Of a stretch of DNA of 64,000 nt, positions 46,564 to 64,000 are shown in pieces (positions within the stretch are counted from its first letter, which is position 1; every line of letters begins with the position of its first letter). The notes under the pieces were generated by a model. That model was not told the DNA's origin. It searched no databases and worked only from the letters and a program-made list of their open reading frames with translations. The stretch comes from Candidatus Pacebacteria bacterium UBA6180 (GTDB lineage: Bacteria; Patescibacteriota; Microgenomatia; UBA1400; PJMF01). The stretch is taken from positions 71,919-135,918 of the forward strand of contig DITQ01000001.1 of the NCBI GenBank assembly GCA_002422165.1, given 5' to 3'. The translations under genes were made by a program, and so were the position numbers.

Positions 46564-46640
46564 GCTTCGATTCTCACAGCTAGTGCTTGAGTTAACTCGC
46601 TTGACGGCGGGGAGCATGGGATGAAGTTGGAACTTTTTTC
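46564..46640 (+). repeat. Intergenic repeat element, copy 2 (about 76 nt)
   Basis: GCTTCGATTCTCACAGCTAGTGCTTGAGTTAACTCGCTTGACGGCGGGGAGCATGGGATGAAGTTGGAACTTTTTT. Confidence 0.8.
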
Positions 46641-46671
46641 GCTCGATAAATTAAGGCTTATAAATTAGTAA

Positions 46672-46992
46672 TTAGCTTATTTCGATATTGTTAACTTCCT
46701 CAGGATAGAAATCAGTGCGCCCATCTTCATGTTTGAGAATTAATACTCCACATGGCCTTCCATATTCTATACGAGTTACTCTTAGATAATTATCATCATT
46801 AATTTTCACAGTTATTTCTTTCCCTTGAGAAGGAGCATATTGCAGGTAATGACTGCTTTTAAAATTTTCTGGCCACTCACCACCTATGAGAAGACCTTTT
46901 TTCATAGCAGTTAAAATTTCTCTTCTAATGCGATTCACTCCTAATTTAGCTGCTTCTAAGTTTTCCTCAGAAAAGTATTCATTTTCATTCAT
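46672..46992 (-). CDS. Hypothetical protein (106 aa)
   Basis: ORF only. The first gene inside the AT-rich segment. Confidence 0.4.
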   Translation of the reverse strand: MNENEYFSEENLEAAKLGVNRIRREILTAMKKGLLIGGEWPENFKSSHYLQYAPSQGKEITVKINDDNYLRVTRIEYGRPCGVLILKHEDGRTDFYPEEVNNIEIS

Positions 46993-47226
46993 AAAACTAT
47001 AATATCACTACTATCAATTAAAGTTAGATTTGAAGATATCAGAAGTGCTTTAATCATCCCTATGGTTTCTTTTGCGGAGCACCTGGGTCTGGAACCCGTG
47101 CGTCGTTATAACTGTCCCATTCCAGAATCGAGATTCCAGGGTAATTTTAGCAAAAATGGGACAAATGGGACACTATAAAAAGGGTGTGTCTTGTTTTTGT
47201 TAATGATGTATTTTGATATATTAATA

Positions 47227-48777
47227 TCAAATCCAACCTTGAGCACTACTGTACATGATAAGAGAGAACATTCTTGCTATTATCTCTCCCGAGAGATTAA
47301 AAATATTGTGATTTTGAAACTCAAAATTATGGCCTGTAAAGTTTCTAACACATGTAGTAATTCTAGCGTTAGCGAAATTCACATCTGTGGTATTAGATAC
47401 AGCGCTGTTAATTTTTGTTTCTAATTCAGTTAAACTGCTTGCAGCCGTATATTCACCTCTAGTTGAATTAATTGGTGTACTAAAAAGTGTTTGCAGCATA
47501 TCGCCAAGAGTCCCACTTAGACTTGAATTCTTTCTTTTCAGCTCATCTTCATACCACAGCGCAAGTTCAGATAGAGATCTTAAAATTTCACCTCTGTTCA
47601 CAGGATTACTCAGCTCAGAATTCAAGCTATAGGAAAAAGAAAACCGATAGAGAGTTATGAATAAAAGAATTTTCTTTTCAGGCGAAAGTGATAAAACATA
47701 TGATTTAAAATCACCTTCTGATAAAGTCGTTGAAAAAACTTGAATATTCTTACTAAGAATGTCTTGGAAGAAGTTCGATATCTGTATATTTTCAAATTGG
47801 GTATATAGATCACTGGTTGGCAAATCTTTCTCTGGATCTATGGTGACTCCAGATAAATGGGCTAAACAACTCCTATCATTATCGTAAGCCTTATAAAGAT
47901 TAAATAACCCTTCTATCACTTTCCCCTGGGCTAGTTGGGAAACACCTAAATTTGCCAGTGAAATGCCTCTGTTTACATTTTTATTATCAGTTTTATTAAA
48001 GTTAACAATCTCACTATCAATATTTGCCCAATAACTTTCTGACACACCATATAATCCACGATTTAGTAGCCAAGTTCCCATCATCTGAGTGTAGCCATCA
48101 ATCGGCTTATTCTTGTCCTCATAAGTATTAATTTCGAAGTCCGATACCTTCATTTGACTTAAACGTTCTCTAAGGCCGATTCTTCCGAGCTCAACCAGGT
48201 AGGCGATATCTCGATGAACTCTGTCAACAATATCACCGCCATTTCCAGGAGTTGTTGCTAATAAGTCATACTTTGAGTCAAATTCAGTAGTGTCAGTTGG
48301 GAGTTCAGACAACTTCTTCACAGCCACTTCAGAATCTGAAATCAACTTTTTTATTTCATCTAAACTACTTTGAAATTTGCCTTCTAATGCAGATGCATTA
48401 AATAGTAGCGGAACAGTAAAAATTAAATCGAAACTTCCCAAAATGCCACTTGGCATTACTTTGAATAGATAATCATTCTGCACTGATAAAGAAGTTGGTT
48501 TCGTGTTGAATAAAAAGTAGTAGGCTAAGACAACATTTGGAATAGGATCTCTATCAGGAATTAAATTTCTGCATCTTTTTGCTAAAAATAGGAATTCACT
48601 TCTTAAAAAATCTGCTTTCCTTAATCCCTCTTTGATCCAGTTCGTATATTGCTCAGAGTTGTTATCTGTAAACCCTTGCTGTGGGATACCAAATCTGTGT
48701 CTATATTCTCGCACTAACAAAATAAACATTGGGTGATTTACAAGGCTCTCAAAAGAGAGATTTATTTTGTCGTACAT
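47227..48777 (-). CDS. Hypothetical protein (516 aa), 4th gene of an AT-rich four-gene operon
   Basis: Overlaps the upstream gene by 16 nt. No recognisable motif. Very AT-rich. Confidence 0.5.
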   Translation of the reverse strand: MYDKINLSFESLVNHPMFILLVREYRHRFGIPQQGFTDNNSEQYTNWIKEGLRKADFLRSEFLFLAKRCRNLIPDRDPIPNVVLAYYFLFNTKPTSLSVQNDYLFKVMPSGILGSFDLIFTVPLLFNASALEGKFQSSLDEIKKLISDSEVAVKKLSELPTDTTEFDSKYDLLATTPGNGGDIVDRVHRDIAYLVELGRIGLRERLSQMKVSDFEINTYEDKNKPIDGYTQMMGTWLLNRGLYGVSESYWANIDSEIVNFNKTDNKNVNRGISLANLGVSQLAQGKVIEGLFNLYKAYDNDRSCLAHLSGVTIDPEKDLPTSDLYTQFENIQISNFFQDILSKNIQVFSTTLSEGDFKSYVLSLSPEKKILLFITLYRFSFSYSLNSELSNPVNRGEILRSLSELALWYEDELKRKNSSLSGTLGDMLQTLFSTPINSTRGEYTAASSLTELETKINSAVSNTTDVNFANARITTCVRNFTGHNFEFQNHNIFNLSGEIIARMFSLIMYSSAQGWI

Positions 48778-49961
48778 ATTCTTATCCTTATCATTTTTCT
48801 CCCCATCACATCTGGGTTCTTAGGTAAAATAGTGGCCTCTACTATATTTTCAATAGAAATCTTGTATTCTTTGGCAAAATGTTTCTTTAAGTTTTGAATA
48901 AGTTTGGTTTTATTTGTTTCTATAGTGTGATAATACAGTTGATTTCTAAATGTAGATCCAAATTGGTCAATCTCATAAACCTCAATTAATGATCCTTCGG
49001 TTCTGTTTTCCTCTGGGTCAAAGACCTCAATGGTGTACACACTTTTCTTATACTTATAATATTTCAGCAGGATACTTGGAGATACATTGTCAAAAGAAGC
49101 TCCTGTGTACCAAGTATTGCCTGGTAAAGGGAATTGGTTGGGATAAGTCTCCGATCGGTCAAAATTAGCTGGATGAGCTACATCACCAAAAGTCGATCTT
49201 TCATCCCAAAATCTTTTTATAACATTTTTTTCATCATCATCTATTTCAATTTTGGAAGCAACCTCTTCAAGTCTATCTTTGAACTTAGGTTTATTCGATA
49301 GAGAGTTCACAATAATTTCTATCGATTTGAAGTGGTCAAGAGCTCTTTTCTCATCACTATCAAAAATTAAGTATCCCATTGATGCTCTGTAAAGATATTT
49401 CAAAGCTCTTTCAAATATTGCATCACGAAATTCTAGTGAATCATTCAAAAAAGTTTCTGTTAGTTCACTCATCCATTGATTTCTTTCGGGACGATCAGGT
49501 AAATATATATGACCACTCTCCAGTTTGAAATCGACTTCTGATTCATTTCCTTCCTCATCTAAAGAATAAATCTTATTAACTTGATAAATGTATGGTTGAA
49601 AACTACCTCTGTTTTCACCGTGTTTCAGTTTCAGATCTTTAAGATTTGCCAGAGATAAAAACCGTGCCACTCTATCGATTGCACGAATTGCTCCACCTAC
49701 GGCTGATCTAGTATTTTCTTCTTCAATGTCATAGTAAATGACATACTCAGATTTAATTTTTATGGGGTCAAAATATGGTAAAGATGTAACATAAGTCTTG
49801 TGAAAGTTGTTTACATCAGAATCGGAAAACACACTTTTGATTGGGGCGAAGTTCCTTTTTTCTTGCTCTTCAAAAGTCATTTTCCTTATAAAGCACTTTT
49901 CAATCTCTCTTTCTGAGAGAGTCTGACCATGGATTAGTGCATAAATTCTATATTTACTCAT
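48762..49961 (-). CDS. Hypothetical protein (399 aa), 3rd gene of the operon
   Basis: Overlaps neighbours on both sides. Contains RFWDERSTFGDVAH, which is HEPN-like (R-x7-H) but not canonical. Confidence 0.5.
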   Translation of the reverse strand: MSKYRIYALIHGQTLSEREIEKCFIRKMTFEEQEKRNFAPIKSVFSDSDVNNFHKTYVTSLPYFDPIKIKSEYVIYYDIEEENTRSAVGGAIRAIDRVARFLSLANLKDLKLKHGENRGSFQPYIYQVNKIYSLDEEGNESEVDFKLESGHIYLPDRPERNQWMSELTETFLNDSLEFRDAIFERALKYLYRASMGYLIFDSDEKRALDHFKSIEIIVNSLSNKPKFKDRLEEVASKIEIDDDEKNVIKRFWDERSTFGDVAHPANFDRSETYPNQFPLPGNTWYTGASFDNVSPSILLKYYKYKKSVYTIEVFDPEENRTEGSLIEVYEIDQFGSTFRNQLYYHTIETNKTKLIQNLKKHFAKEYKISIENIVEATILPKNPDVMGRKMIRIRICTTK

Positions 49962-51747
49962 GATTTTTAAAATAGGCTGTAAATTTTTCTACTAGTAATT
50001 TGTATAAAAAATCAAATAAAGGAGTATCTGAATATATCAAGTCACATTCTCCTTCAGTCCAGGTACTAACTTTATATTTATTTCCTCGCAACTCAACCTG
50101 ATTAAAATTAGAGTTTTTCAAAAGCAACTTTTCATCTTCTGTAAGCTCCACAACTCTCGTTGTTTTTGTATGATTTATTCCCTCCAAATAGAAAGTGTGT
50201 AGTTTAGGAATATCAAATCCTTTATATACATCTTTGGTTTCGATTGAAAATGCTATGACTTCTGGAAGACTTAATTCTTTTGCTAAAGATGGAAAATTAT
50301 TAAGTACAACTTGGTTGTAAGCTTCAACAAGTGATGATTGAAAGACATGGAAGTTGTTAGCAACATCCTCTTTTGAGAGGGTATTCCAGATTAAGTTAGA
50401 TTCTAACTTTGAAAGTCTCTCAAAACTTTTTCTAATATATGGTCTTTTAATCTCACCTGTTTGATTTTTAAGGTAAGTTAGTAGCTCAACGAAAATACCA
50501 AAAGGAAATTTTTCATTACCAACTAGTATCCTTGGTAGAGATTTGTCTTTCTTTGAGAGTGTAGTTATTGTTAGCCTATTTACCTTAGCTAGTTCTTCAG
50601 TATTTAATGAAGATAATACATCTGGATCAAGGTAACTCCTATTAGGAATATCGTTCTTCTTTATTAAGACCTTATATGCGTTTATTGTCCACCATGGTAG
50701 GAAATTATAAAAAGCAAACTCCACCTCTTCTAACGAATATTTATCTTTTTTATCTAAACCAAGCTGAATCTTGAACTTATCGACAAAGGCAAAAATGAAT
50801 TCTTTTGCTAGATCTTTGTTCCCAGCATGATTTAGCAACTTTTTATATAGAACATTTAATACTTTCTCACGAATAATATCTCTAGAATACTTTTTATGAT
50901 CTTTGAGTATTGGGTTTTGCGTACTAAAGCCTCTAAACTCCAAACCCTCATTTCTTAATTGCTCATGCAATGCTTTTGTTGCTTCTTTAATCTGGACGTC
51001 GTTTTTTGTGAGTGAAATTGGATATAGTGCATAAGATAAGTTATTTTGAGAAAACTCATAGTAAGTCAACCCAATTTTCCAAGCATCAGGATAATATATC
51101 CTTTTTACCAACTTAAACTCATTTTCCAATAGGCTATTTAGCTCATCTAAGAACAAATGAATAAATTCATACCTTTCGTCAATTGCTCCCAATGCCGGTG
51201 TAATTGTTTCAGAAATAAGTGCATATGCATTCTTATATTTTTCAAACTCTTCAGCTTTATACCTATACAAATCAATTATTTTCGACCATTCATCAATAAA
51301 TTCTTTGCTACCATTTTTTATAACTTTTAATTTATCAAAATGAATTGTTTTACTAGTTCCTAGATTATCTACAAAACTTTTATCAATCTGAATCCAATAA
51401 GCCTCTTTTGGATCATCAAGTCTGACCCCAATGAGAATTTTCGGTATCCAATTATTGGAGTCTTTACAATAAGACAAAAATTTATCATCGTTAAAGCTAT
51501 ATTTGGGGGGATTAATATTTTTTGAAGGCAACTTTTTGATCTGAACTTCAAGCTTCCCAATTGGAAAGCCTTCTTTGTCAGTTACCTCAATATAACCATC
51601 AATATTAGGCCAAGTATCATTTGATTTAATATCTGGCATTGCTCTTTGAGTTTCTGACAGCCAGGCACTAACATAACTTACAGCTTGTTGGTCAAAAAAA
51701 CTTGTTTTGAAATGTTTTGCTGATTTTGACTTTTTTCCTTTAGACAT
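49954..51747 (-). CDS. Hypothetical protein (597 aa) with an N-terminal DUF4365-like PD-(D/E)xK motif, 2nd gene of the operon
   Basis: WPNIDGYIEVTDKEGFPIGKLEVQIKK gives a D-G-x-I-E...V-Q-I-K pattern typical of DUF4365/REase-like folds. Family assignment is from memory. Confidence 0.5.
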   Translation of the reverse strand: MSKGKKSKSAKHFKTSFFDQQAVSYVSAWLSETQRAMPDIKSNDTWPNIDGYIEVTDKEGFPIGKLEVQIKKLPSKNINPPKYSFNDDKFLSYCKDSNNWIPKILIGVRLDDPKEAYWIQIDKSFVDNLGTSKTIHFDKLKVIKNGSKEFIDEWSKIIDLYRYKAEEFEKYKNAYALISETITPALGAIDERYEFIHLFLDELNSLLENEFKLVKRIYYPDAWKIGLTYYEFSQNNLSYALYPISLTKNDVQIKEATKALHEQLRNEGLEFRGFSTQNPILKDHKKYSRDIIREKVLNVLYKKLLNHAGNKDLAKEFIFAFVDKFKIQLGLDKKDKYSLEEVEFAFYNFLPWWTINAYKVLIKKNDIPNRSYLDPDVLSSLNTEELAKVNRLTITTLSKKDKSLPRILVGNEKFPFGIFVELLTYLKNQTGEIKRPYIRKSFERLSKLESNLIWNTLSKEDVANNFHVFQSSLVEAYNQVVLNNFPSLAKELSLPEVIAFSIETKDVYKGFDIPKLHTFYLEGINHTKTTRVVELTEDEKLLLKNSNFNQVELRGNKYKVSTWTEGECDLIYSDTPLFDFLYKLLVEKFTAYFKNHE

Positions 51748-51776
51748 ATTTGTTCATATTAATTATAGCTTTGATT

Positions 51777-53387
51777 TTATTGTATATTTCCTGAAAACCC
51801 CTCATTCTCACTCACCAAAAAAATCGTCCAGTAAACATACCCGCTGGCATCTTTTAAATCTCTTCCAGTCAGAACACCTTCCCGTCTCAATTTTTTGATC
51901 GATGATGGTTTTACGCCTCGTTTTTCAACGTCATATTTATCAAAATGTTCTTTCTCCCACCACTCCTTATCCAGATCAAGCACAGGGACCACACCTTCCT
52001 GGATATTTCTCCAGCAATCACGGCATCTCAAGCCATCTGGCCGCCACCAAATGTCCTCACCGTTGTGGGATCTTCTGCAAATTCCACAAGTGTAACCTCT
52101 ACCACCATCATTGAGAAAGAAACCATTTGGTTCATCTTTTAGCCTGCGAGTCCTAATACGTTTGGTTGCAATGTATTCAGCGTCCATTCTGGCTAGCTGT
52201 ACGAGGTTGTGGTGTTCATATTTAGCTCTGAAATCTGGATCAAGCTTGGATTTAGGCTTCTTTGGTTCTTCTTTACCAAACAGCTTAAGCAAGTCGTCTT
52301 CTGATTCATATCCTTTGAGCTTGCCACTGAGAAATCCCAACCGATAACTCATCAGGTCTTTCGGTGCTCGCCAGTTGGTGTCCTTGAGTGTTGTTTTCAG
52401 TAAGTCGTATAAATCAGAGATGCTTTCTCGGTCACGTCGCTTAGGCTTAGTTTCTTGAAGAGTAAATGGCACTAATACGTGACGATCCATATTAGGCTCA
52501 CCAATAGATAGGCGGGTAAAACCACTTTCTTCAAGTGCTTTATTGATCAAAGTTTCTAGGTCTGTGATGGCGATTTTATTTACCGATAACAGCTTTTCAT
52601 GAGCTGGCGTATCGAGTTCAGCGAGAACTTCCTCTTTTACTTCATGAGCAACCTCCAGAGCTTCAAGCGTTTCTACATATTCTTTGCCTTTTTCATCAGA
52701 TAAACAAAACTCTGCTCGATACTTCACCAATAGTTGTTTGTCTTCTAGCTCTTCTTTTGCATGTTCTTCCTGCCACTTTTTATGCTCCTCATCGCTTTTC
52801 TTCAGATCCCAAATCTCTTTATTTGAGTAGCCACAGTTTTTGCACTTGTAGCGGGTGGTAATGACCTCATCTTTCTTACTACTTTTTCTCTCTAGCTTTT
52901 GTTTGCAGTCAGGACAAAAGTCAGACTTAGAAACATAGATCTCGCCATCGTCATACGCACCTTGTCGCTTTTTACATTTTGGACAGTTGAAGGTGAATAG
53001 CACCCTCATGGGTTTACCATCATCCCAATCAACTAAGTGGTGAGAACCATCGTCAGTCATAGCACTCCCACATTCAGGGCAATTGGCTCTGGGAGCTGGA
53101 GTATTGTCTTGCTTGTCCTGTTTAAGGCGATCAGACTCAAGCCACTCAGCGATAGTTGAAGCTCTGTGTTTGTGTCTTTGAGCTTGGATGAGAAAGAGCA
53201 TCCTGCCTCTGAGCAATCCCATGTTTCGTTCTTGTTCAGATTCTGGGTAATTTTGGAACTTTGGTTCCTGTTTCATTTTCTCGCCAATAGAATTGACCAT
53301 CTCCAAAGTCTTCAGACACTCTCTGATAGTGCCAACATCGTAGCGATCTTCATACTCTTGTTGTGGTTTTAGGTATTGAAACGACAT
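51777..53387 (-). CDS. Multi-zinc-ribbon protein (536 aa), 1st gene of the operon
   Basis: Three CxxC...CxxC pairs: CPECGS...CPKCKK, CPDCKQ...CKNCGY, CGICRR...CRDCWR. No NTPase motif. Somewhat higher GC than the downstream genes. Confidence 0.5.
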   Translation of the reverse strand: MSFQYLKPQQEYEDRYDVGTIRECLKTLEMVNSIGEKMKQEPKFQNYPESEQERNMGLLRGRMLFLIQAQRHKHRASTIAEWLESDRLKQDKQDNTPAPRANCPECGSAMTDDGSHHLVDWDDGKPMRVLFTFNCPKCKKRQGAYDDGEIYVSKSDFCPDCKQKLERKSSKKDEVITTRYKCKNCGYSNKEIWDLKKSDEEHKKWQEEHAKEELEDKQLLVKYRAEFCLSDEKGKEYVETLEALEVAHEVKEEVLAELDTPAHEKLLSVNKIAITDLETLINKALEESGFTRLSIGEPNMDRHVLVPFTLQETKPKRRDRESISDLYDLLKTTLKDTNWRAPKDLMSYRLGFLSGKLKGYESEDDLLKLFGKEEPKKPKSKLDPDFRAKYEHHNLVQLARMDAEYIATKRIRTRRLKDEPNGFFLNDGGRGYTCGICRRSHNGEDIWWRPDGLRCRDCWRNIQEGVVPVLDLDKEWWEKEHFDKYDVEKRGVKPSSIKKLRREGVLTGRDLKDASGYVYWTIFLVSENEGFSGNIQ

Positions 53388-53458
53388 AACTCCTTTCGCT
53401 AACTATCACTTAGCAATAGTATATTCGTTTTCTGAGAAGTTACCTATATAATAGAAAG

Positions 53459-55312
53459 TTGATGAAACAAGCAAATAAGACAAAAACTAACTCTGATAAA
53501 AGAAAATCTTTTTTAAGACATAAGTTTACCTTAAAATCAGCGACAATCTTTTTTGGATCTCTATGGTTAATGACGATGCTGTTTTTCTTGGCAATAGTGA
53601 TAGTAGGAACAAATTTCTTTCAAACGACTGTTGATAAGGGCCCACTGCAGGGAGATATCTGGGGCATTGTGATGGTGCTGGATATACTTGGTGGAATCGG
53701 ATTCTTTTTAATTTTTTCTATGCTTCTGACTGCATTATCTATGAGATCAAATGACCCTGATAAAAAGAAGTCTTCATTCCTAAGGAAGTTAATCAATTTT
53801 TTCCTCTTTTTCATTTATCTGGGAATTCTTCCTTTGTATTTATTACTCAGAGTATGGCAACCAAAAAAATGGTTCGTCTGGTTAACAAATATCAAGAACA
53901 GTTCCAATAAAATCGCACTCAAATCCCTTGGTAAAAAATTAGCAATATCTTTACCGATACTACTGTTTTTACTTCCAGTTTGGGCAGTCGGATATTTTTC
54001 TGTGGGAACAATCGTTGCTGACGAACTTGGTTTAGTTCCATACCAAATGGATATTGTTGGCACAGGATCAATGCACCCGACTTTTCCAAAGGGAGATGGT
54101 AAAGATCCAAAAGAACTTGCGAAACAAGTTGTTGGCCGTCAAAACATGTTTAATTATCCAAATGGCTTCGTGTTTTCAGGAAAACGATATTTTGGTCACA
54201 CCATAACTCGTGGTGACATTATCACAGTAGAAGATGAAAAGACGAGAAAAGCTACTGAGGAAACATATGGAGATCCATCAGGTTGGCTGAAACGAGTTGT
54301 GGCAGTTGCTGGAGACACTTTGGAGTTGAGAGATGGTATTTTCTACCTCAATGGCGAACCCCAAAAGGAGCCATATGTAGCTAGAGCACGATCAACATTC
54401 GGTCAGTCATTTCTGCAGGAATGTCAGCAAGTAACCGTTCCAGATAATTCTATATTTATCATGGGAGACAACCGCACTGGGAGTCGAGACTCCAGAGACG
54501 TAGGTTTCTTTAGCATAAATGATATTAAGTCAGTTTATCCGTTCACCAAACAAGCAGAAAACCTCAGTAAAAACTGGCATGACACGACAAATGATCTAGA
54601 AGAATCTGCCAGAATTAAACTCAATAAAGAAGAATACGTTGAAAAACTCAATCAGAAACGTGAAGAAGAAGGTCTAAAACCGCTCAAATATAATGAAAAA
54701 TTAGAGCTTTCTGCAGAAAAAAGAGGTGCCAAAATTCTTGAACACAATGACTTCTCTTTTGAGGCAACTGCAAGTGGTTATACGATGGAGAAAGCTATCA
54801 GAGAGGTCGGTTATTATAATACTTTTTGGGGAGAGGCACCAAGCAATGGTTATTACGAAGCAAGTGAACTGCTAGATTATCAGCTTGAGTTTCCTGAATC
54901 TAAAACATTCGTTTTCGACAAGCGTTTTCAAGAAATCGGTATTGCTGAAGTACAAGGTGAGATCAATGGTTGTCCAGCACATGTGATTGTGCAACATTTT
55001 GGAGGCTATGTGCCACCAAACTATTCTGCATCAGACATTCAATCATGGGAAGATGCACTAGGATCATTAAGAAACATTCAACCTAGTTGGAATAACTTAA
55101 AGAATTCCGGTGATTTTTATAATCGTCATAAGGAGAAAGTTGATCGGTTAAATCAAATTATCGATATTAGAATTAACAGAATGACTGATATTGTTGGGAC
55201 AATGAAAGCAAATAGATGGCTAAATGCTGAACAAAATGCATTTGCTAATTCAGGTGACATGGCTTTGTATAAAGAACAGGAAGAACTCGCTACGTTCCTT
55301 AACAGCCAATGA
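53459..55312 (+). CDS. Multi-TM signal peptidase I (S26) domain fused to a C-terminal CAP/SCP (YkwD-like) domain
   Basis: About 5 N-terminal TM helices. SPase I Ser box GTGSMHPTFP, Lys box KRVVAVAGD, and GDNRTGSRDSRDVGFF. The C-terminus matches the CAP pattern LKPLKYNEKLELSAEKRGAKILEHNDFSF...GY...GE. Confidence 0.55.
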   Translation: MMKQANKTKTNSDKRKSFLRHKFTLKSATIFFGSLWLMTMLFFLAIVIVGTNFFQTTVDKGPLQGDIWGIVMVLDILGGIGFFLIFSMLLTALSMRSNDPDKKKSSFLRKLINFFLFFIYLGILPLYLLLRVWQPKKWFVWLTNIKNSSNKIALKSLGKKLAISLPILLFLLPVWAVGYFSVGTIVADELGLVPYQMDIVGTGSMHPTFPKGDGKDPKELAKQVVGRQNMFNYPNGFVFSGKRYFGHTITRGDIITVEDEKTRKATEETYGDPSGWLKRVVAVAGDTLELRDGIFYLNGEPQKEPYVARARSTFGQSFLQECQQVTVPDNSIFIMGDNRTGSRDSRDVGFFSINDIKSVYPFTKQAENLSKNWHDTTNDLEESARIKLNKEEYVEKLNQKREEEGLKPLKYNEKLELSAEKRGAKILEHNDFSFEATASGYTMEKAIREVGYYNTFWGEAPSNGYYEASELLDYQLEFPESKTFVFDKRFQEIGIAEVQGEINGCPAHVIVQHFGGYVPPNYSASDIQSWEDALGSLRNIQPSWNNLKNSGDFYNRHKEKVDRLNQIIDIRINRMTDIVGTMKANRWLNAEQNAFANSGDMALYKEQEELATFLNSQ

Positions 55313-56733
55313 AACTAACAAAATCACTCTTCTTAAGCTATCTGGAATCACCACTGCACATGTGGTTGTCAGTTCATAGTGATACTCCACCAAAACCACC
55401 ATCCTTGTACGACCAACATACGATGAAGCAAGGGTACAGTGTTGAAAAATTAGCGAAAGATTTTTTACAGCGGAAAGTCGCTACACAGTATCCTACTGGC
55501 ACGACACTCACCTTTGAAGCCACTCTAACTGATGGCAATTATGAGTCGCGCATTGACGCTCTCGTTCATAACACTGTGAACAACACCTATGATCTGTATG
55601 AAATCAAAAGTAGCACCACTATTCATACTGAGCATAAATATGACGTGACGTTCCAGTATCTAGTGGGTAAAGCCACACTGCCTATCAACAAAGTCTACTT
55701 AGTGCGAGTCAACAGTGACTATCAACGAGCTGGGGAGATTGATATCAATGAACTCTTCATCGTGGAAGACATGACTGACCACATCGCCAAAAAAGAAGAT
55801 GAGGTGTATCAATTGAGATCTGAAGCATGGGGAGTGATGCGACTTGAACAAGAACCAAGTGACGAGCATTGTTTTAATCCTGGTACCTGTACCTATCCTG
55901 ACCACTGTTTCCCCAATCTACCCGATGGTTCGATCTATGAACTAGGCAGAGCCAGCAAAAAACAATATGGTGAGTTGCTTGATATGGGGATAGAGCACGT
56001 CAAAGACATTCCTGACACTTTCACCAGCAACTATAAGCAGAGACTGCAAATTCAATCAGCCAGACAAAACCAGCCAATAATTGATCACGAATCCATTGCT
56101 CAGGAATTGAGTCAACTGAAATACCCAGTCTACTTCTTAGACTACGAAACCTATGGTGAGGCACTGCCCATGTACGATGGCTACAAGCCGTATCAACAGG
56201 CAGTCACACAGTTTTCCATCCACGTTGCCAGAAATCCTGAAAGTGATGAGTTCGAACATTATGAATGTCTAGCAACGGAAGCTGGTGATCCAGCTCGGCA
56301 TCTTGCTACAGAGCTATGCAAGGTCATTGGTGAAACAGGCTCAGTTATTGTCTGGAACAAAGGTTTTGAGTGTGGCAGAAATGATGAATTGGCTGTTTTA
56401 TGTACTGATTTAGCTCTGCAACTGCAAAGCATCAATGAACGAGTCTATGACTTGATGGATGTGTTCAAAAATGGTTTGTATGTTGACCACCGTTTTCATG
56501 GCAGTGCTTCAATCAAAAAAGTCTTGCCCGTCTTATGCCCAGAGCTGAGCTACAAAGAACTAGAAATTGGTGAGGGAACCAAAGCTATGCTTGCTTGGCA
56601 TGAGATGGTCTATGGAGCTATAACTGCGGAAGAAAAAGAACAAATTAAACAAAACCTACTGACTTACTGCAAGCTGGATACTTGGGCGATGGTGGAGATT
56701 TGGAAATTTCTCATAGACATAATAAAAAGGTAA
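55309..56733 (+). CDS. DUF2779-like protein: Cas4-type PD-(D/E)xK nuclease with a DnaQ/RNase-H-like C-terminal half
   Basis: YDLYEIKSST (D..EIK), a Cys cluster CFNPGTCTYPDHCF, and an FLDYETYGE (DxE) exonuclease-like motif. Start overlaps the upstream stop (ATGA). Family name is from memory. Confidence 0.45.
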   Translation: MKLTKSLFLSYLESPLHMWLSVHSDTPPKPPSLYDQHTMKQGYSVEKLAKDFLQRKVATQYPTGTTLTFEATLTDGNYESRIDALVHNTVNNTYDLYEIKSSTTIHTEHKYDVTFQYLVGKATLPINKVYLVRVNSDYQRAGEIDINELFIVEDMTDHIAKKEDEVYQLRSEAWGVMRLEQEPSDEHCFNPGTCTYPDHCFPNLPDGSIYELGRASKKQYGELLDMGIEHVKDIPDTFTSNYKQRLQIQSARQNQPIIDHESIAQELSQLKYPVYFLDYETYGEALPMYDGYKPYQQAVTQFSIHVARNPESDEFEHYECLATEAGDPARHLATELCKVIGETGSVIVWNKGFECGRNDELAVLCTDLALQLQSINERVYDLMDVFKNGLYVDHRFHGSASIKKVLPVLCPELSYKELEIGEGTKAMLAWHEMVYGAITAEEKEQIKQNLLTYCKLDTWAMVEIWKFLIDIIKR

Positions 56734-56735
56734 AG

Positions 56736-57482
56736 ATGAATCTTTTCAATTTATTTAAACAAAAAAAGCCTGATTTTTTTGCAAAAAACCAACTTGTCAA
56801 TCAAACTGAATGTCCATACTGCAAAAGCCAATTGGATAAAGTCCCGTCTAGAAAAACAAAATGTACTAATTGTAACGAATACATCTATGTAAGGACTAGA
56901 CCTTCAGATAGGGCAAAAATATTAGTCACAAAACAACAAGCAGAGAAAATAGAGGAACAATGGAATGAGTATCATGAGAAAAAACAACTCGATGAAATTG
57001 ACCCAAGCGTTTTTGAAAAAGAAAGAGAACAGCTCAGATCTGATTTTCATGGGCAAGAGCCGTCAGAATATGATATTAGATGGAGATTGCTTGCCAAAGA
57101 ATCTTTGGAACATGCAAAAAATAATAATTGGGGGTTGTACAGAAATACCCAACTCAAAAAAGCTGTTCAGTTAAAAGTTGAGAAGAAATATTTAGATGCC
57201 TTGGATTTTTATCTTGACCTTTGTTATCTAGATTTGAATGGTCCAAACAATGGAGGTAAGATTGGAACTGAATACTTGCCTTTTGATCCAAGAAATGGGA
57301 ATGGTTTTCTAGCTCCGGGAATAATTGAAGAAATTAAACAAATTATCTCCAAGCTTAGTTTAAAGCAAAGTGCAGTTGAAACGAGGTTTTTGAAACGCAC
57401 TCAGATTATTTTTAAATCAATGAAGTTGCCTCTTGATCCAGAAGAATGTTGGATAAAGCTTAAACAAGCTATTTTGAGGTAA
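56736..57482 (+). CDS. Hypothetical protein with an N-terminal zinc ribbon
   Basis: CPYCKS...CTNCNE. The ATG at 56736 is 2 nt after the upstream stop. The ORF-track start at 56682 is rejected as overlapping. Confidence 0.45.
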   Translation: MNLFNLFKQKKPDFFAKNQLVNQTECPYCKSQLDKVPSRKTKCTNCNEYIYVRTRPSDRAKILVTKQQAEKIEEQWNEYHEKKQLDEIDPSVFEKEREQLRSDFHGQEPSEYDIRWRLLAKESLEHAKNNNWGLYRNTQLKKAVQLKVEKKYLDALDFYLDLCYLDLNGPNNGGKIGTEYLPFDPRNGNGFLAPGIIEEIKQIISKLSLKQSAVETRFLKRTQIIFKSMKLPLDPEECWIKLKQAILR

Positions 57483-57493
57483 GAACTTACAAT

Positions 57494-58129
57494 TTAAAAC
57501 TGTCCATCTAGAATATTTTCAACGCAGAGCTCATGCAGGTATGCCTCATCATTCTTCTCGATGAGCTGATAATAGATTCTTGCTTTGTGTGCTTCGTAAC
57601 CATTAATAACTATTTCAGAGACAGAATTACCTTTTATTGAATCAAGATATCTTTGATTATCTGATTTAGGGTTCAGAACGAGTAGATTGCTATTCAAATT
57701 AAATGACAAACCTTCACTAACTTGATGATCTATTGATGGTTCGTATATAACAATGCCACCTGAGATTGCATCAACAATAGCAAATCCCTGACATTCGGTA
57801 CCACATCCCCAAGTTGCTACAGTGTAATGTCCTGCAAAGTTTGGACCATCAGCTGATTGGTGCATTATGGTAGTGCTAAATAACTTCGCTTCAGGAAATG
57901 AATCAAAATTAACTGAGGCTGGTTTTTCTGAGAAAATCTCAACAGCTGAACTGTCTACTTTTGAGAGTACTTCGTCGCAAACAGAAATAGAACTTAATTT
58001 TGAAGATACAATCTGACTTTCGATTCCAACAAATTTTGAATATTTTGCTCCAAAATAAAATGATATTATTGTGGCTAAAATTAATAATAAGCAACTTCTA
58101 ATAATTTTCATAATAAGTAATAGAAACAT
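57494..58129 (-). CDS. Hypothetical secreted/membrane-anchored protein (211 aa)
   Basis: N-terminal hydrophobic signal or anchor. Its ATG immediately follows the stop of the WYL gene. Confidence 0.45.
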   Translation of the reverse strand: MFLLLIMKIIRSCLLLILATIISFYFGAKYSKFVGIESQIVSSKLSSISVCDEVLSKVDSSAVEIFSEKPASVNFDSFPEAKLFSTTIMHQSADGPNFAGHYTVATWGCGTECQGFAIVDAISGGIVIYEPSIDHQVSEGLSFNLNSNLLVLNPKSDNQRYLDSIKGNSVSEIVINGYEAHKARIYYQLIEKNDEAYLHELCVENILDGQF

Positions 58130-58789
58130 TTAGTAATATTTTCTAAAATTCTTAGCATTTTCTATTTGTGAATCTGACTTATTTATGTAATCATAATTAA
58201 CAGAAAAATTTTCACCCAACTTAATGTTCTTCATTCTATCTAACCTAAACGTTCTCAAGTCATTTCTATAGGTACAATAGGCAACACAATAAGTGCTGTT
58301 TACGTTATATGGATGAATTGTTCTGCTAAAGCCCTTGTAGTTGATTGTGGCTTCCCTGTGCTCTTTGACAGCTATTGCAATGATTTCCTGATTTGTTTGA
58401 CCACTGACTTTAGTGGAATTCTTTTCCTTTATTTTTTCGTCTCTAAGTCTCCAAAGAAAAGTACTATCAATTTCGCACTGATCCTTTAAAGATCCATATA
58501 AAAGACTGTTTACAATAGATCTCTCTAAGCCAAGTTTAGATGCTATATCTTTGGCTTTAATACCATCACTTTCCTCAATTATTTTCAAAACCCTTGTCTT
58601 CAATGAAACTTTTGTCTTGTTAGCCAGACCACTTTGGCTTAATGGGTGCCACCCATAATTTTCATCCTTGTAACAACGTCCTTTGAGTTTTTCAATTAAG
58701 ATGTTGTAAGTAATTAAGTAATTTTGAAAAGCCTTTTTCGCAATTTCTTGACCAGTTAGTCCAGGATAGTTGCTTACTATTTCAAGCAC
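58130..58789 (-). CDS. wHTH-WYL domain regulator module; GTG start with an open upstream frame through a Zn ribbon (possible C-terminal module of the helicase)
   Basis: Two HTH-like segments and a WYL-domain signature ...IHPYNVNSTYCVAYCTYRNDLRTFRLDRMKNIKL. There is no ATG start, and the frame is stop-free for 116 codons upstream. Confidence 0.55.
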   Translation of the reverse strand: MLEIVSNYPGLTGQEIAKKAFQNYLITYNILIEKLKGRCYKDENYGWHPLSQSGLANKTKVSLKTRVLKIIEESDGIKAKDIASKLGLERSIVNSLLYGSLKDQCEIDSTFLWRLRDEKIKEKNSTKVSGQTNQEIIAIAVKEHREATINYKGFSRTIHPYNVNSTYCVAYCTYRNDLRTFRLDRMKNIKLGENFSVNYDYINKSDSQIENAKNFRKYY

Positions 58790-59088
58790 AACCTCCTCTG
58801 GAGTTTTTGAATACTCAGTGCCTTTGTTGTTTTTTACACCTGATTTTCCATCTGAATTAGCTATTGGTTCTTGTCTCTTAAAATACTTATTTCTGTATTT
58901 ATTTAATTCGTCAAAGCTGAGACTAGATCTAAATTTATGAAGCCTCGTGTGTCTGTCTTCTTCATAACAAAATAAGCAAAAGTCTATATTCTTGAATGGG
59001 AAAGCATAACTTGCATAAATATTTTCACATTTTTCACAAGTTCTATCTTCTTTATTAATCAGTTTTTCTATCTGTCTATGGAAATCTT

Positions 59089-62000
59089 CTAAAACATCAG
59101 GGTTTTTGACTTTTTTTTTACGATGTTGGTTAATCGTTCATCAAGAGTTTGGATAGGATCTTTGCCAATATTAAACTTATTAATCCTTAAGAATTTATAA
59201 CCATAACCTTCAAGAACCTTCTGCCTATAAATGTCGTTTTCATTCATGTAATACTCATAATTATATTGATCAACGTCGGATATATTTTCGCTAAAGTGTT
59301 CTTTGAAACCATCGTATTCAATAATAATCTTCTCGTCTTTATACATTAATAAAAAGTCAACTTTATATTTAGGATGAATATAGTTGCCATCAAGTTGCTG
59401 GAGATAATCACCTAATGGAAACTGAGGTTTGAGCTCAATGAATTCTTTGTTTTGTTTGTAAAAATTTGTTTGTTCAAAATAATGTTTTATTTTATCTTCC
59501 ATCGGGGAGTTTGGATCAGTTTGTCCAAGAGTTTTACCTCTTCCAACTTCTAATTCATTTTTATAGTGAAGAAGTGCATTCTTAATCTCTCCTTTAAATT
59601 CTTCTGGTTGTTTACTCAAAATGAAGTGCATGCAATTTTTTGCACGACTAAAACCAACATTAAGTCTTTGAGATTTAACTGTTCCGTCAACCTCATCACT
59701 CAGTTTTGCTAAATCGATGGGAAAAATCCAATTAAGCCTGTCCTTTTCTTTAGTGGCAACCATTGAATAGAAAATACAATCTCTTTCTTCTCCCTGACAT
59801 GTGTCAAATGTCATGATTTTTAGTTTACATTTGCCAAAAAGCCAATCTCTTTCTTGAAGTTCGTTAATTTTGTCAAATAAGAGAGTCACTTGCTCACGAT
59901 GTGGAGTAATTATTCCAAGAGTCTGTTCTGTGCCAGCATCATGAAACTTCTTTAATTGTTTGATAATATGATTTACTTCCATCTCGTTTGTATTTTTTAA
60001 TTCATCAAATTTACCATCATGATCAATAACATCAAACTTTATAACATCATCAATGGGAACACCCCTTACTTTCATGCATTGGAGCGAATCAGCGTAGAAA
60101 TATTTATCTGAAAATGAAATAATTTCTGGATAGCATCTAAAATGTTTTTTTAATTGGCATTCATAGTTTCTTATGAATCTCATGAACTTTAAAATTGAAT
60201 TTTTAACATCAAAGTTTTCTTGTACTTTGGTTAACCAACCATAGTTTGATTCTTCTTTACCTTTCTCCAATAGAAAAGCTTCTTGAACTTTCTTCTTCAG
60301 TTCTTGATTCGTAACTTTGCTAGCATTATTAGCTTTAACATTGGAAAACTGCTTATCATCACCTAAAACAACGATTTGTTTTCCTCTTATTAGTGCAGGT
60401 AAAGATTGAGCAATGCTTACTTGTGAAGCCTCATCAATGATAATTAAGTCAAACAAATCTTTCTCAAGTGGAATATACTCAGCATAATCTCTAATTCCAG
60501 CCAATATGCAGGGAAAAGCTTTTTTTAGATTTCTGAATAATTCTTTAGGGAATTTCTGTTTTTTTCTTAATATATTTTTGAGAGTATTGACGTCACCAGC
60601 AAAGCTACTTGTGTACTCGATGATTCGTTTATCTAAGAAGTAAGTCATTTGAGCAGTAACAAGATGTTCAATTGTTGTAACTCCCTCTGAGTAGAAACCA
60701 TTTTCTTGAATTCCGAATTGGTCTTCAAGTTTTCGCTCTATTTCCTTATATTCAAGATAAGTATTAATTTCTTCTTCTGAATGTTTCTCGATCTCACTGT
60801 TAATGTCTTTGAGATAATTAAAATCACTGTGCAATTTAATCTGATCTGACAGTTTAGGATATTTGTTTCTGAAATCTTTAACAAATTGAATATCATCAAA
60901 TAGTTCTAGTACTTTCTTGAAATCTGCAATTATTGTTTCAACTCTTTGAATAGAGGCGTCAAAATTTTGTGTAGTTAACTTTTCTACATCAATTTCAACA
61001 CCAAGAGTATTTAAGAAACTAATTTGCAAGTCGTAGTTATTCACCTCGTTTATAAGGTTCACGACCTCAATTGCTAACTCAGTTTGCCTTAGTTCTTCTA
61101 AATTCTTAATTGCATAGTCAGGATAATCTTCACAAAAACCAATCAGTTTTTTGCTTGACTTAGCCAAACTGGTTGGGAAATTTAGGTCCATATCTTGTTG
61201 TAAACAATTAAATATAAATTTGAATTCTTCGTCCCCTAATGAGTTATTAGCGATTTTTTCGTTTAAAATTTCCAGAACGTTTAGCACTTCCAAGATTCGT
61301 TGAAAGTTTTTATCTGGATTTTCAATGTTGAAATAGTGGAAGCTTTTTTTAATTGATCTTGTTAAATCATTGACTTGGTTTCCACTTAGCAAAAATCCAA
61401 TCAAAGGCTTCTTTAATTTTTGAAGGTTTATGCAATATTGTTTCAGCTCAGAAAGTGACTCTTTAACAGATTGTTCTTTTGGGACCACAAAATTTGCCAA
61501 AAAGTCTTTATCTCGTAAATTACTACTAAGAATACGATCAGATTCGTTATAGATGCCCCTAAGTAATTCATATTTGCTTACATTATCTTGTAGTTTCTGA
61601 ATATTATCTTTATGATCAAATTTTAGTGCTTCCTCATTAATTGTGATCTCTATTAAACTTTGCATCTCTTCTAGAACATCACTTATTGTTTTTGAAAAAT
61701 TAAGTAACCATTTTTTATTTTGATTTTTAAGCTCTGAGTATGAAAACTTAGAAGATAATTTTTCTTTTGAGGTCTTGATTCCGATCAATAAATCATACAA
61801 ATCTTTAAGTTTTTCTAAATTTTCTTCTGATACATTCTCTAGTGAAATTCGAATTTTATAGTTCTCCGTAATTTTTTCAATCGATGTTTTTAGGCTGGGT
61901 AAATCAGTGCTTAGATCAGAGAGATTTTCTGAGGAAATCCAATTGATTTTTTCAAAATTTTCAGCATGATGAAAGTAATATTCAATGTCCTTGATTGAGA

Positions 62001-63771
62001 TGCCTTCAAAATAATTAATATTATCTTTTATATTGTTTTTTAAGTTATTTACAGCTTCAGTTCTGATCTGATCGTACTCATCTTTTCTTGCCTTATAAGC
62101 CTGATAGTGTTCTCGAATTTTTTGAATAGTTTGACCTTGAACAATTTTATAGAATTTATTGCCAGACTTTCCCAGTCTTAAAATTGGATTTTGAAAATCA
62201 TCTTCGTGCCTAATTTTGTTAAGTGTTTGAGAAATCTTATCTTCAACAACATCCAACGCTTCTTTTTTATCAGATAAAACCAATACAGACTTTTCTTCTA
62301 GTAATGCCTTACAAATAACAGCGGTAATTGTATGACTTTTCCCAGTTCCAGGTGGTCCTTCCAATACTAGAAATTTACAGTCTGGCTTTTCAAGAGCCAT
62401 CAGCACTTGTTTCTGTTCGTCGTTAAGTGGAATTGGACTATCAAATACAAGTTTGTTGGGTATTTCTTTTTCTAGCCATTCATCATCTATTTCTAAAGTA
62501 AAATCTTTCGGATTTTCTTCTATGAAACTCTTCAACAGTTCATCAAACTTAGCGAGCAACAATCCTTTATCATTTAATATTTCTTCATAATCATTAATGA
62601 GTGACTCATCAGACTTATCAAATAAATAAAAGTAGGATTTGTTTGATAATGAAGCAATTAAATTAATTCCTTTTTGTGGAGCTGAGTCTTGAATATTAAT
62701 GTTTCTGTTTAATTCAAAGAAGTTCTCAATCTTCTTAATTGTTGACTCTAGTTGTCCTTGAAAGTTTTCGTGCTCATTAAGATATATTATTCTTTCAAAC
62801 TCACCAGCTAAGGTTGCTTGTCTTTTAACTTGTAGGTTGTACTCTTGAACAACGAATTCAACTGCTTTCGTATTGATGAAAATTCTGCTATCAAACTTCA
62901 GGATAAAATTGTTATCTTGTTTTTCGATAGATAGGGGTAGATAAAAAACTGGAAACTTCTCATTGCCAAGCGAAATTTCATAAAAATAAAGATAAAGCTC
63001 AGTTTTGTCTATTAATTTATTATTTCTAAACAACTGATAGAAATCATAAAATGCGTCACTGACTGCAAAATTATGAAAGAAATTTAATAGATTACCTTTT
63101 ATTTCAGATAATATTATTGATTTCTTTAACTCCTTTTTTATATCGAACGACTTAAGATCCTGAGAATAGTTCTGTAATAGATCATGAAGGCTGGCTTCAA
63201 AGGAAGAAAATAACGCATCAACAATGTCAACTTCTAGTTGGTATTTGCTATTTTCATCGGCAAGCTCTAGGTTTTCTAATGGTTTATCTAGCTCATCTAA
63301 AAAAGGAAGAATAAGCTTCTTTGCGACTAACTTCTTTGTCCCTTCTTTCGTCTCCTCAAGAAACTTGTCGTGCTCCTTTTTAAATAGGAGGTAGTTTTCT
63401 TGAACCAATGCTTCAATATCTTGGAATAAATCTTTGAGATCATCTTGTTTTAGTTGATCAATTTTCTTTGAAATAAGTTCAATGAGCGAGCTTGGAATAT
63501 TGGTAGTGTAAGCTCCTTTTTTCAATAAAAATTCCTCTTTTGGAAAACCTTTATTTAGGGAACCTATTAGGAACTTTTTTAATGAGTCATACTTATCTAA
63601 ATCAATAGCTACCTTTAAGCCATTCTGAACCTTTTGAATAGTGTTTCTTTTGGGAATTCTTCTTTTTTTAAAATCAGTTTCCAAGAAATTCATGAAGTAC
63701 TTAGCCACCTCTTTAACAAAAGAGGAGACTTGATGATCTTGTTTATTTTGGTTTTCACCTGAATCACTCAC
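59089..63771 (-). CDS. SF1B (Upf1/AAA_11-AAA_12-like) helicase with a C-terminal DUF559/Vsr-like endonuclease domain (Hhe-like architecture)
   Basis: Walker A LVLEGPPGTGKSH, motif II IIDEASQ, VLGDDKQ, motif VI-like TCQGEERD. C-terminal IIIEYDGFKEH...GYKFLRINKF matches the DUF559/REase pattern. N-terminal 450 aa are unknown. Confidence 0.7.
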   Translation of the reverse strand: MSDSGENQNKQDHQVSSFVKEVAKYFMNFLETDFKKRRIPKRNTIQKVQNGLKVAIDLDKYDSLKKFLIGSLNKGFPKEEFLLKKGAYTTNIPSSLIELISKKIDQLKQDDLKDLFQDIEALVQENYLLFKKEHDKFLEETKEGTKKLVAKKLILPFLDELDKPLENLELADENSKYQLEVDIVDALFSSFEASLHDLLQNYSQDLKSFDIKKELKKSIILSEIKGNLLNFFHNFAVSDAFYDFYQLFRNNKLIDKTELYLYFYEISLGNEKFPVFYLPLSIEKQDNNFILKFDSRIFINTKAVEFVVQEYNLQVKRQATLAGEFERIIYLNEHENFQGQLESTIKKIENFFELNRNINIQDSAPQKGINLIASLSNKSYFYLFDKSDESLINDYEEILNDKGLLLAKFDELLKSFIEENPKDFTLEIDDEWLEKEIPNKLVFDSPIPLNDEQKQVLMALEKPDCKFLVLEGPPGTGKSHTITAVICKALLEEKSVLVLSDKKEALDVVEDKISQTLNKIRHEDDFQNPILRLGKSGNKFYKIVQGQTIQKIREHYQAYKARKDEYDQIRTEAVNNLKNNIKDNINYFEGISIKDIEYYFHHAENFEKINWISSENLSDLSTDLPSLKTSIEKITENYKIRISLENVSEENLEKLKDLYDLLIGIKTSKEKLSSKFSYSELKNQNKKWLLNFSKTISDVLEEMQSLIEITINEEALKFDHKDNIQKLQDNVSKYELLRGIYNESDRILSSNLRDKDFLANFVVPKEQSVKESLSELKQYCINLQKLKKPLIGFLLSGNQVNDLTRSIKKSFHYFNIENPDKNFQRILEVLNVLEILNEKIANNSLGDEEFKFIFNCLQQDMDLNFPTSLAKSSKKLIGFCEDYPDYAIKNLEELRQTELAIEVVNLINEVNNYDLQISFLNTLGVEIDVEKLTTQNFDASIQRVETIIADFKKVLELFDDIQFVKDFRNKYPKLSDQIKLHSDFNYLKDINSEIEKHSEEEINTYLEYKEIERKLEDQFGIQENGFYSEGVTTIEHLVTAQMTYFLDKRIIEYTSSFAGDVNTLKNILRKKQKFPKELFRNLKKAFPCILAGIRDYAEYIPLEKDLFDLIIIDEASQVSIAQSLPALIRGKQIVVLGDDKQFSNVKANNASKVTNQELKKKVQEAFLLEKGKEESNYGWLTKVQENFDVKNSILKFMRFIRNYECQLKKHFRCYPEIISFSDKYFYADSLQCMKVRGVPIDDVIKFDVIDHDGKFDELKNTNEMEVNHIIKQLKKFHDAGTEQTLGIITPHREQVTLLFDKINELQERDWLFGKCKLKIMTFDTCQGEERDCIFYSMVATKEKDRLNWIFPIDLAKLSDEVDGTVKSQRLNVGFSRAKNCMHFILSKQPEEFKGEIKNALLHYKNELEVGRGKTLGQTDPNSPMEDKIKHYFEQTNFYKQNKEFIELKPQFPLGDYLQQLDGNYIHPKYKVDFLLMYKDEKIIIEYDGFKEHFSENISDVDQYNYEYYMNENDIYRQKVLEGYGYKFLRINKFNIGKDPIQTLDERLTNIVKKKSKTLMF

Positions 63772-63866
63772 AAGTATTTACTTTCAATATTATTTGTCTG
63801 ATGTCACTTAATTATAGACCATAAACTCTTACCTTGGATTATCAATATTAGTGAAAGTAACAGTAC

Positions 63867-63920
63867 GTGCTTCTATGTCAACGCATATGCGTTTATATGC
63901 TTCTATGTGTGCATATATAC
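63867..63920. promoter_or_regulatory. Direct repeats TGCTTCTATGT-N4/5-GCATAT (x2, 30-bp spacing) with CATATG palindromes, 100 to 150 bp upstream of the helicase start
   Basis: Seen directly. A candidate operator, for example for the downstream WYL regulator. Confidence 0.3.
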
Positions 63921-64000
63921 ATTGAAATATCAATCTAATTTTCAATTTTGCTAGTTGCAATTACGTAGTAAGGGAGCTAGAGTAAAGCTACTCGCAAGAG

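Follow-up and report, generated by a model that had tools for sequence, protein, structure and literature searches.

Hhe, reportedly described by Gao et al. in 2020, is a single-gene defence protein in which a DUF4011 helicase is combined with a Vsr nuclease. Regulators in which a winged helix-turn-helix (wHTH) domain is followed by a WYL domain normally stand alone beside defence genes (PMC9122601, PMC9122588), and two of them, CapW and DriD, have been deposited as complexes with single-stranded DNA (PDB 9c5g, 8tp8). Slippage of bacterial RNA polymerase on nine A or T residues is efficient in vivo and is used by Thermus thermophilus dnaX (PMC5009743), and a nine-A site gave 40% frameshifted product in an Escherichia coli reporter (PMC3711429). 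The locus described here recalls each of these systems. It lies in a 64,000-nucleotide stretch of the genome of Candidatus Pacebacteria bacterium UBA6180 (assembly GCA_002422165.1, contig DITQ01000001.1, positions 71,919 to 135,918), which we refer to as the window. On the minus strand, a long helicase-nuclease gene is closed by a stop codon shortly after a run of nine A residues (A9), in the same codon phase as the reporter site, and the -1 frame runs on into a zinc (Zn) ribbon, two wHTH domains and a WYL domain. Taken together, the comparisons below suggest that the A9 run (59111-59119) serves, within one gene, as a conserved site of programmed recoding, a reading that we consider probable (about 0.78).

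The following features define the junction.

59089 to 63771, minus strand: zero-frame open reading frame (ORF) of 1560 amino acids (aa), the short isoform, a superfamily 1 (SF1; Upf1/DNA2-like) helicase carrying a putative C-terminal PD-(D/E)xK-type nuclease
59111 to 59119, minus strand: A9 slippery run in the phase GT-A AAA AAA AA-G (spaces mark codons), the proposed recoding site, holding the -1 heptamers A_AAA_AAA and A_AAA_AAG
59089 to 59091, minus strand: zero-frame TAG closing the short isoform, the 7th codon past AAG
58130 to 59110, minus strand: -1-frame extension of 326 codons plus TAA, readable only after insertion of one A or a -1 shift

The coding strand at the junction reads ACC AAC ATC GTA AAA AAA AAG TCA AAA ACC CTG ATG TTT TAG, and the tail SKTLMF with which the short isoform ends is not conserved in relatives. 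The alternative frame is open from 59137 down to the TAA at 58130-58132, a span of 335 codons, and is free of ATG, GTG and TTG for 116 codons, until the GTG at 58789. When one A is inserted in silico (A10), translation yields a single ORF of 1880 aa whose junction reads ...LTNIVKKK followed by VKNPDVLEDFHR... (over a longer stretch, ...LTNIVKKK followed by VKNPDVLEDFHRQ...); the predicted junction peptide of this product is ...NIVKKKVKNPDVLEDFHR and its predicted mass ~215 kDa. Removal of one A (A8) brings a stop after 5 codons. An earlier, sequence-only reading of this DNA had pointed out the 1560-aa ORF, the A9 run, the TAG seven codons later, the roughly 116 open codons, the lack of an ATG start for the wHTH-WYL protein, the fusion of frames by A10 into a protein of ~1.9k aa and the immediate stop in A8, all of which hold, with ATG, GTG and TTG all missing from those 116 codons. 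It had labelled the continuing frame +1; the frame is in fact -1 (equivalent to +2), a correction consistent with its own statement on the A10 fusion, and the spacing in the Zn ribbon, given there as x17, is CxxC-x16-CxxC. A9/T9 runs are strongly avoided across the window, where the proposed recoding site is the single instance as compared to 15.4 +/- 5.6 in dinucleotide shuffles. Because the run is single in 64 kb and the layout is conserved in distant relatives, the arrangement is more than chance.

The conceptual junction protein was searched against a large protein collection, and the DNA was inspected for part of the truncated relatives. In most homologues the nuclease is followed in frame by a Zn ribbon (PF01396), and one of these, P0053, continues further into a WYL domain. 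A subset ends at ~37% query coverage, with C-termini of the form ...[VIL]KK[KN] and a short non-conserved tail. At the DNA level, GT-A9-[G/C] is present in 10 independently assembled lineages (the window, L001, L020, L038/39, L040-42, L043, L045, L046, L047 and L048), whose proteins are 54-70% identical in the flanking domain. In each of the ten, a zero-frame stop lies 1-14 codons past the run and the -1 frame continues with ...L..(I/L/F)H...CxxC...FP(Y/F)K...CxxC(Y/W)E and, beyond it, another C-terminal domain. An eleventh lineage, L044 (4001-6200), has A12 where the others have A9; its frame relation is unchanged and its extension complete. UGA is read as Gly in this lineage, whose helicase fragment contains 24 in-frame TGA codons and whose extension contains 6. 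The same +1-nucleotide (nt) or -1 shift is required at 11/11 truncated-frame loci, the run length being 0 mod 3 throughout, and among these loci no A8, A10 or A11 allele of the GT-A9-S site and no stop codon in the -1 frame upstream of the Zn ribbon was found. Both the projects and the assemblers (SPAdes NODE, MEGAHIT k141, JGI, Logan) differ among the loci, and replicate samples are identical in sequence (L038 = L039; L040 = L041 = L042). Two relatives that are in frame also carry a long A run at the nuclease/Zn-ribbon junction, namely GTT-A9-GAC in P0092 (L052 ~4290) and ATT-A11-T in P0125 (L050 ~7720). In these genes slippage would truncate, rather than extend, a fraction of the product. 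Since both keep the run in a different phase, it appears that the slippery junction itself is maintained, in-frame relatives included.

The family is large. When 1.84 billion cluster representatives were searched exhaustively with HMMER, 255 proteins were returned at E <= 1e-30. Among the 140 sequences with a complete core, 30 end right after KK[KN], 95 are fused in frame and 4 are in frame with KKK at that position; about 24 of the 120 best homologues end a few residues past [VIL]KK[KN], and at least 19 of the truncated forms stand for separate clusters at 50% identity. In a rough tree of the 140 cores (unweighted pair group method with arithmetic mean, UPGMA), most frameshifted members fall into one cluster with the window and several into others. 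Finished plasmids and phages searched by tblastn gave one distant in-frame homologue on a Priestia plasmid and no phage match, and a scan of IMG/VR gave three in-frame classical family members, none with an A run. The union of a WYL domain with such a helicase, which the sequence-only reading had not recognized as described, is already present in databases as proteins that run in frame through helicase, nuclease, Zn ribbon and C-terminal WYL (P0053, P0199, P0220, P0226). A full-text search of the literature, with subscription-only papers outside its scope, found no paper on fusions of this type and no description of a recoding site or frameshift in this helicase family.

Substitution patterns bear directly on the extension. 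In the stretch from the run to GTG 58789, the ratio of nonsynonymous to synonymous substitution rates (dN/dS) among the window, L001 and L020 is 0.10-0.23 in the -1 frame (dS 0.46-1.16), as compared to 0.125-0.15 in the wHTH-WYL part and 0.63-1.54 in the other two frames. Judged by these ratios, purifying selection acts on the trans-frame sequence. Across the junction, the trans-frame products from three lineages can be aligned gap-free to the in-frame P0125, P0012, P0053 and P0010, with homology to the in-frame relatives starting directly after KKK, and residues L47, H51, C65, F77, C85 and C88 are invariant in this combined alignment. Given V-K-K, the codons GTA AAA AAA have a probability of 0.05-0.31 in each of ten lineages according to their own codon usage, and the joint probability of ~1e-9 argues that the homopolymer itself is under selection. 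Gene callers annotate a separate WYL protein of 219-310 aa, the called start of which varies by orthologue (MINKEDR, MLEIV, VSSKTPED, MRCYEK, MSYSDL). In the window, GAGGAGG (58787-58803 region) sits 2 nt before GTG 58789; it encodes Glu-Glu, is GAAGAAA in L001, and is probably not a conserved ribosome-binding site. With called starts that differ and this Shine-Dalgarno (SD)-like motif altered in L001, the extension has no conserved start codon of its own. The helicase and Zn ribbon-wHTH-WYL coding sequences are supported as one translational unit joined at the A run.

It is probable that this unit is expressed as two isoforms. Messenger RNA read as encoded would give the 1560-aa helicase-nuclease, terminating 7 codons past the run, and in a fraction of expression events the frame would move -1 at the A9 run. 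We infer that slippage takes place there, and that transcription, rather than translation, is its main step: RNA polymerase would realign on the nine A:T pairs and add one A to the transcript. This route is favoured because the full nine-A run alone is conserved in all lineages, no stimulator accompanies it and efficient slippage on nine A/T is known. A ribosomal -1 slip is a possible contributor, on A_AAA_AAG, present in the window clade, or on A_AAA_AAA, which the A AAA AAA AA-S phase offers. Either route would lead to the identical 1880-aa product with 326 extra codons, carrying the Zn ribbon, both winged-helix domains and a CapW/BrxR/DriD-type WYL domain, and the ratio of the two isoforms would be fixed by the efficiency of slippage. 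The long isoform may then be the sensing or regulated form of the nuclease-helicase effector.

Several observations weigh against this interpretation. A conserved RNA stimulator is absent in the 10 lineages, where the z-scores of downstream folds range from -1.2 to +1.5, and an upstream SD-like element is inconsistent among them; slippage on nine A's, for its part, does not require stimulators. Around the run, three close orthologues show no exceptional extra conservation of their nucleotides. All loci are consensus assemblies, mostly metagenomic, and the case is built on their sequences. The in-frame relatives with A9 and A11 could be read as evolutionary ON/OFF flipping, and translation from GTG 58789 may give, as a minor additional product, a free wHTH-WYL protein of 219 aa. 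Finally, the anti-phage role of the helicase family is a prediction, and the Hhe and ProA equivalog cut-offs were failed.

Two rival explanations place the cause either in the DNA or in its reconstruction. Replication slippage could toggle A9 (OFF, short) and A10 (ON, fused), the assemblies having caught the commoner OFF state. This phase variation had been coupled with programmed frameshifting in one of the three explanations offered by the sequence-only reading, and it is the frameshifting half that fits best. Nine-base homopolymers are mutable at replication, phase variation is known in defence and restriction-modification genes (PMC3711429), and long A runs occur in the in-frame P0092 (A9) and P0125 (A11); however, exactly A9 is found at 10 loci and A12 at one, with no other length even among close relatives (the window, L001 and L020) at dS 0.5-1.2, whereas a null OFF state predicts A8 and A11 to be about as common as A9 and A12, giving a probability of ~5e-4 for 11/11 in one class. 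Furthermore, P0092 and P0125 differ from the truncated forms by substitution or phase change (GTT and ATT before the run) and not by run length, and purifying selection on the extension is steady in the lineages whose DNA is in the 'OFF' state. Toggling of the DNA is thus unlikely to account for the locus. An error of sequencing or assembly, in which the true DNA is A10 and encodes an ordinary in-frame fusion of ~1880 aa, would agree with the in-frame fused majority of the family and with the miscounting of homopolymers by some platforms, but the identical undercount would be needed in 11 lineages from different studies and assemblers, plus replicate samples. Relatives with A9 and A11 were assembled in frame, and synonymous codon choice is constrained to keep the exact run. 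With the same A9 and offset in 10 independent assemblies and A12 in the eleventh, this explanation, also put forward earlier, is hard to credit.

The remaining alternative is that there are two genes, the helicase ending at TAG and a Zn ribbon-wHTH-WYL regulator, comparable to a stand-alone BrxR or CapW, arising by internal initiation or termination-reinitiation, or else that the downstream part is the remnant of a decaying fusion or a pseudogene. The separate 219-310-aa protein called by annotation, the usual placement of stand-alone wHTH-WYL genes next to defence genes (PMC9122601, PMC9122588) and the GAGGAGG just upstream of GTG 58789 in the window all speak for two genes. Against them stand the 116 start-less codons, Zn ribbon included, that nevertheless show dN/dS of 0.10-0.23, the in-frame homology that begins immediately past KKK, and an SD-like motif that lies 2 nt from the GTG and is missing in L001. 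Orthologues with their own WYL start and in-frame stops upstream were looked for among the 11 loci; the -1 frame is stop-free upstream of the Zn ribbon in all of them, and the called starts are inconsistent among orthologues. Decay, the last of the three earlier explanations, is excluded by the dN/dS values, which are the same in the start-less linker and Zn ribbon as in the WYL part. Overall, this alternative is improbable, more so than toggling of the DNA and less so than a miscounted run.

Programmed recoding at the A9 run thus remains the preferred reading, and a regulated version of it can be imagined, although we regard that version as doubtful. Phage infection would perturb transcription, for example through altered nucleoside triphosphate pools, a modified or replaced RNA polymerase or an altered elongation rate, and the frequency of slippage at the junction would shift. 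The balance between the sensor-less isoform and the one with the WYL domain and Zn ribbon would move with it, and the nuclease would be armed or released. The arrangement has apparently persisted, or arisen anew, in a number of sub-clades and across phyla, the UGA=Gly lineage among them, and this spread, along with the A9 and A11 runs of in-frame relatives, would reflect selection for sensing.

The extension that the shift would append consists of four parts.

58967 to 59038, minus strand: Zn ribbon CEKC-x16-CLFC, extension residues 25-48, without a start codon upstream in frame
58643 to 58801, minus strand: winged helix-turn-helix 1, extension residues ~104-156, predicted local distance difference test (pLDDT) score of ~80 in the model
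58445 to 58603, minus strand: winged helix-turn-helix 2, extension residues ~170-222, Pfam MarR/HTH_24 (MarR-type 5e-6)
58136 to 58393, minus strand: WYL domain and C-terminal helix, extension residues ~240-325, with FRLDRM; Pfam WYL 3.6e-10, PADLOC WYL 7e-12, pLDDT ~90

Joined to helicase aa 1-1554, it makes up the conceptual long isoform of 1880 aa. The wHTH-WYL assignment proposed earlier is borne out for both domain types by Pfam, with two wHTH repeats, not one, preceding the WYL domain. The extension was modelled with AlphaFold (AF2) from an input alignment of 13 sequences; the two winged-helix domains and the WYL barrel are confident (pLDDT 80-90), and the Zn-ribbon part is poor. Its best structural matches by Foldseek are CapW (5e-7), PafBC, DriD and BrxR (7tb5, 9fnd, 9c5g, 8tp8, 7qfz). 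In the model the WYL domain is followed by one helix only (306-325) and by no WCX domain. Extensions differ within the family: that of the window clade is Zn ribbon-wHTH-wHTH-WYL, a short type (L038, L040, L043, L044, L046-48) has two Zn ribbons and a ~70-aa domain ending in FLIDKIRKI, and L045 has a Zn ribbon and a Topo-type Zn finger. The ~70-aa domain has no Pfam match, WYL included, in L038, L040, L043 and L046-48, and hhalign gives a weak match to the window WYL (P = 4.8e-4, probability 32%). In P0278, the second wHTH is replaced by a CPFC...CKSC Zn ribbon that resembles that of L038/L048. This protein bridges the window-type and short-type extensions and in doing so helps the description of the short-type domain as 'WYL-like', which we offer as a lead.

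Upstream of the run, the helicase-nuclease gene starts with GTG at 63771 and contains three recognizable regions.

61852 to 62430, minus strand: helicase N-core, aa 448-640, Walker A GPPGTGKS; Pfam AAA_11 (2.3e-15), AAA_30 and AAA_19
59620 to 60180, minus strand: helicase C-core, aa 1198-1384; Pfam AAA_12 (2.5e-23)
59128 to 59370, minus strand: Vsr/DUF559/MTES_1575-like nuclease region, aa 1468-1548 (IIIEYDGFKEH ... YGYKFLRINKF), sub-threshold in Pfam

The ORF in L001 is of identical length, with 93.6% aa identity. The SF1 helicase domains claimed from the letters alone are confirmed by these Pfam matches. The accompanying DUF559/Vsr nuclease is putative: the motif is kept in the family with E128, D130 and K161 of the aligned region invariant, and the Pfam scores are under the gathering cut-offs (MTES_1575 6.5e-4, 20.2 vs 38.2 bits; DUF559 7e-3, 16.7 vs 20.6). 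Homologues are labelled 'very-short-patch-repair endonuclease' by JGI, and PF18741 is present in some. The best PADLOC match of the helicase is PDC-S37 (7e-47, partial), then MkoA, and the PADLOC Hhe profile matches the core region alone (1e-21). Membership in Hhe (NCBIfam NF042953) is rejected at 101.9 bits against a cut-off of 2000, with the match limited to aa 1082-1388, as is membership in ProA (NCBIfam) at 149.7 bits against 1500; no Pfam match to DUF4011 occurs in the window helicase. The earlier label 'Hhe-like' is therefore apt for architecture and not for family: the protein has the layout of Hhe-type single-gene helicase-nucleases and lies outside the Hhe and ProA families. The domains and the island context would point to an anti-phage role.

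The gene lies at ~31% GC, as compared to ~45% for most of the window, in a low-GC island (~46000-64000, 30-40% GC) that otherwise holds mostly large ORFs without family matches (47227-53387). One ORF at 49954-51747 has a weak PADLOC match to an Argonaute-associated restriction endonuclease module (2e-5). A DUF2779 protein (55309-56733, plus strand; Pfam 8e-39) overlaps by 4 nt a 617-aa ORF that is signal peptidase I/YkwD-like (53459-55312, plus strand). Counterparts of both adjoin the helicase in L001 (9982-13253, 91-96% aa identity), and in the distant lineage L043 a DUF2779 gene (7786-9267, 33% aa identity) lies directly downstream of the helicase extension; DUF2779 may be a partner gene of the helicase system. 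A 536-aa ORF (51777-53387, minus strand) has no match in Pfam, NCBIfam or PADLOC. Its homologues are found beside helicase relatives in L001 (13325-14917), L020 (1348-1712) and L055 (4193-5245); one of these three loci is an IMG/VR contig, on which the helicase relative is a classical in-frame member of the family (35% aa identity). What is carried between the WYL stop and the DUF2779 gene varies: the window (56682-58129) has a 211-aa ORF with a hydrophobic N-terminus, whose ATG comes right after the WYL TAA, together with a Zn-ribbon ORF of 266 aa, whereas L001 (9011-9976) has a single 321-aa ORF.

If the recoding interpretation is right, a widespread helicase-nuclease family has been mis-split in annotation into a truncated helicase and an orphan 'WYL' or 'hypothetical' gene. 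About one fifth of the closest sampled relatives would be affected, from Pseudomonadales to candidate-phyla bacteria, and their long products would be missing from protein databases. The site would be a deeply conserved case of cellular poly-A recoding outside mobile elements and dnaX, built on a bare A9 with no stimulator. It would also suggest an effector made in two isoforms, only one of them bearing a nucleic-acid-sensing WYL/Zn-ribbon module, and give a handle on how single-gene nuclease-helicase systems are restrained.

Among known recoding sites, the nine-base run of T. thermophilus dnaX (tau/gamma) is likewise an in-gene homopolymer of nine bases that gives isoforms sharing an N-terminus in a set ratio (PMC5009743). 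E. coli dnaX, a case of -1 programmed ribosomal frameshifting, has the heptamer A_AAA_AAG in common with the window site, but its stimulators, an SD-like element and a hairpin, have no evident counterpart here. In dnaX the shift gives the shorter product, whereas in the window gene it would give the longer one, and the dnaX gene family is unrelated to the window helicase. The Mg-chelatase-like cluster of Antonov et al. 2013 (A_AAA_AAA_AA) has the same nine-A length and codon phase (PMC3711429). It is also annotated as two adjacent genes and has in-frame fused homologues in other species (PMC3711429). It is, however, a different protein family, and its frameshift was shown by experiment, whereas the window site is known from sequence alone. 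OrfA-OrfAB of the insertion sequences IS3 and IS1 and the G/GT tail chaperones of phages likewise append a C-terminal module to a fraction of molecules by frameshifting; they use heptamers with RNA structures in mobile elements and phages, whereas the A9 of the window is bare and lies in a cellular helicase gene of 4.7 kb.

With respect to its protein, the locus resembles Hhe, ProA and PDC-S37 in that one very long polypeptide has an SF1 core of the AAA_11/AAA_12 kind, followed by a putative Vsr/DUF559-type nuclease at the C-terminus, and in its place within a low-GC island. It differs in that only the helicase core matches, and in that the window family adds C-terminal Zn-ribbon, Topo-type Zn-finger or WYL modules. 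CapW, BrxR, DriD and PafBC likewise have a wHTH followed by a WYL beta-barrel and are associated with defence-type genes. Ultimately, while those regulators stand alone, the WYL domain of the window would be joined to a helicase-nuclease via the proposed recoding, and its extension is set apart from theirs by two wHTH repeats, a preceding Zn ribbon and a single helix in place of the WCX domain.

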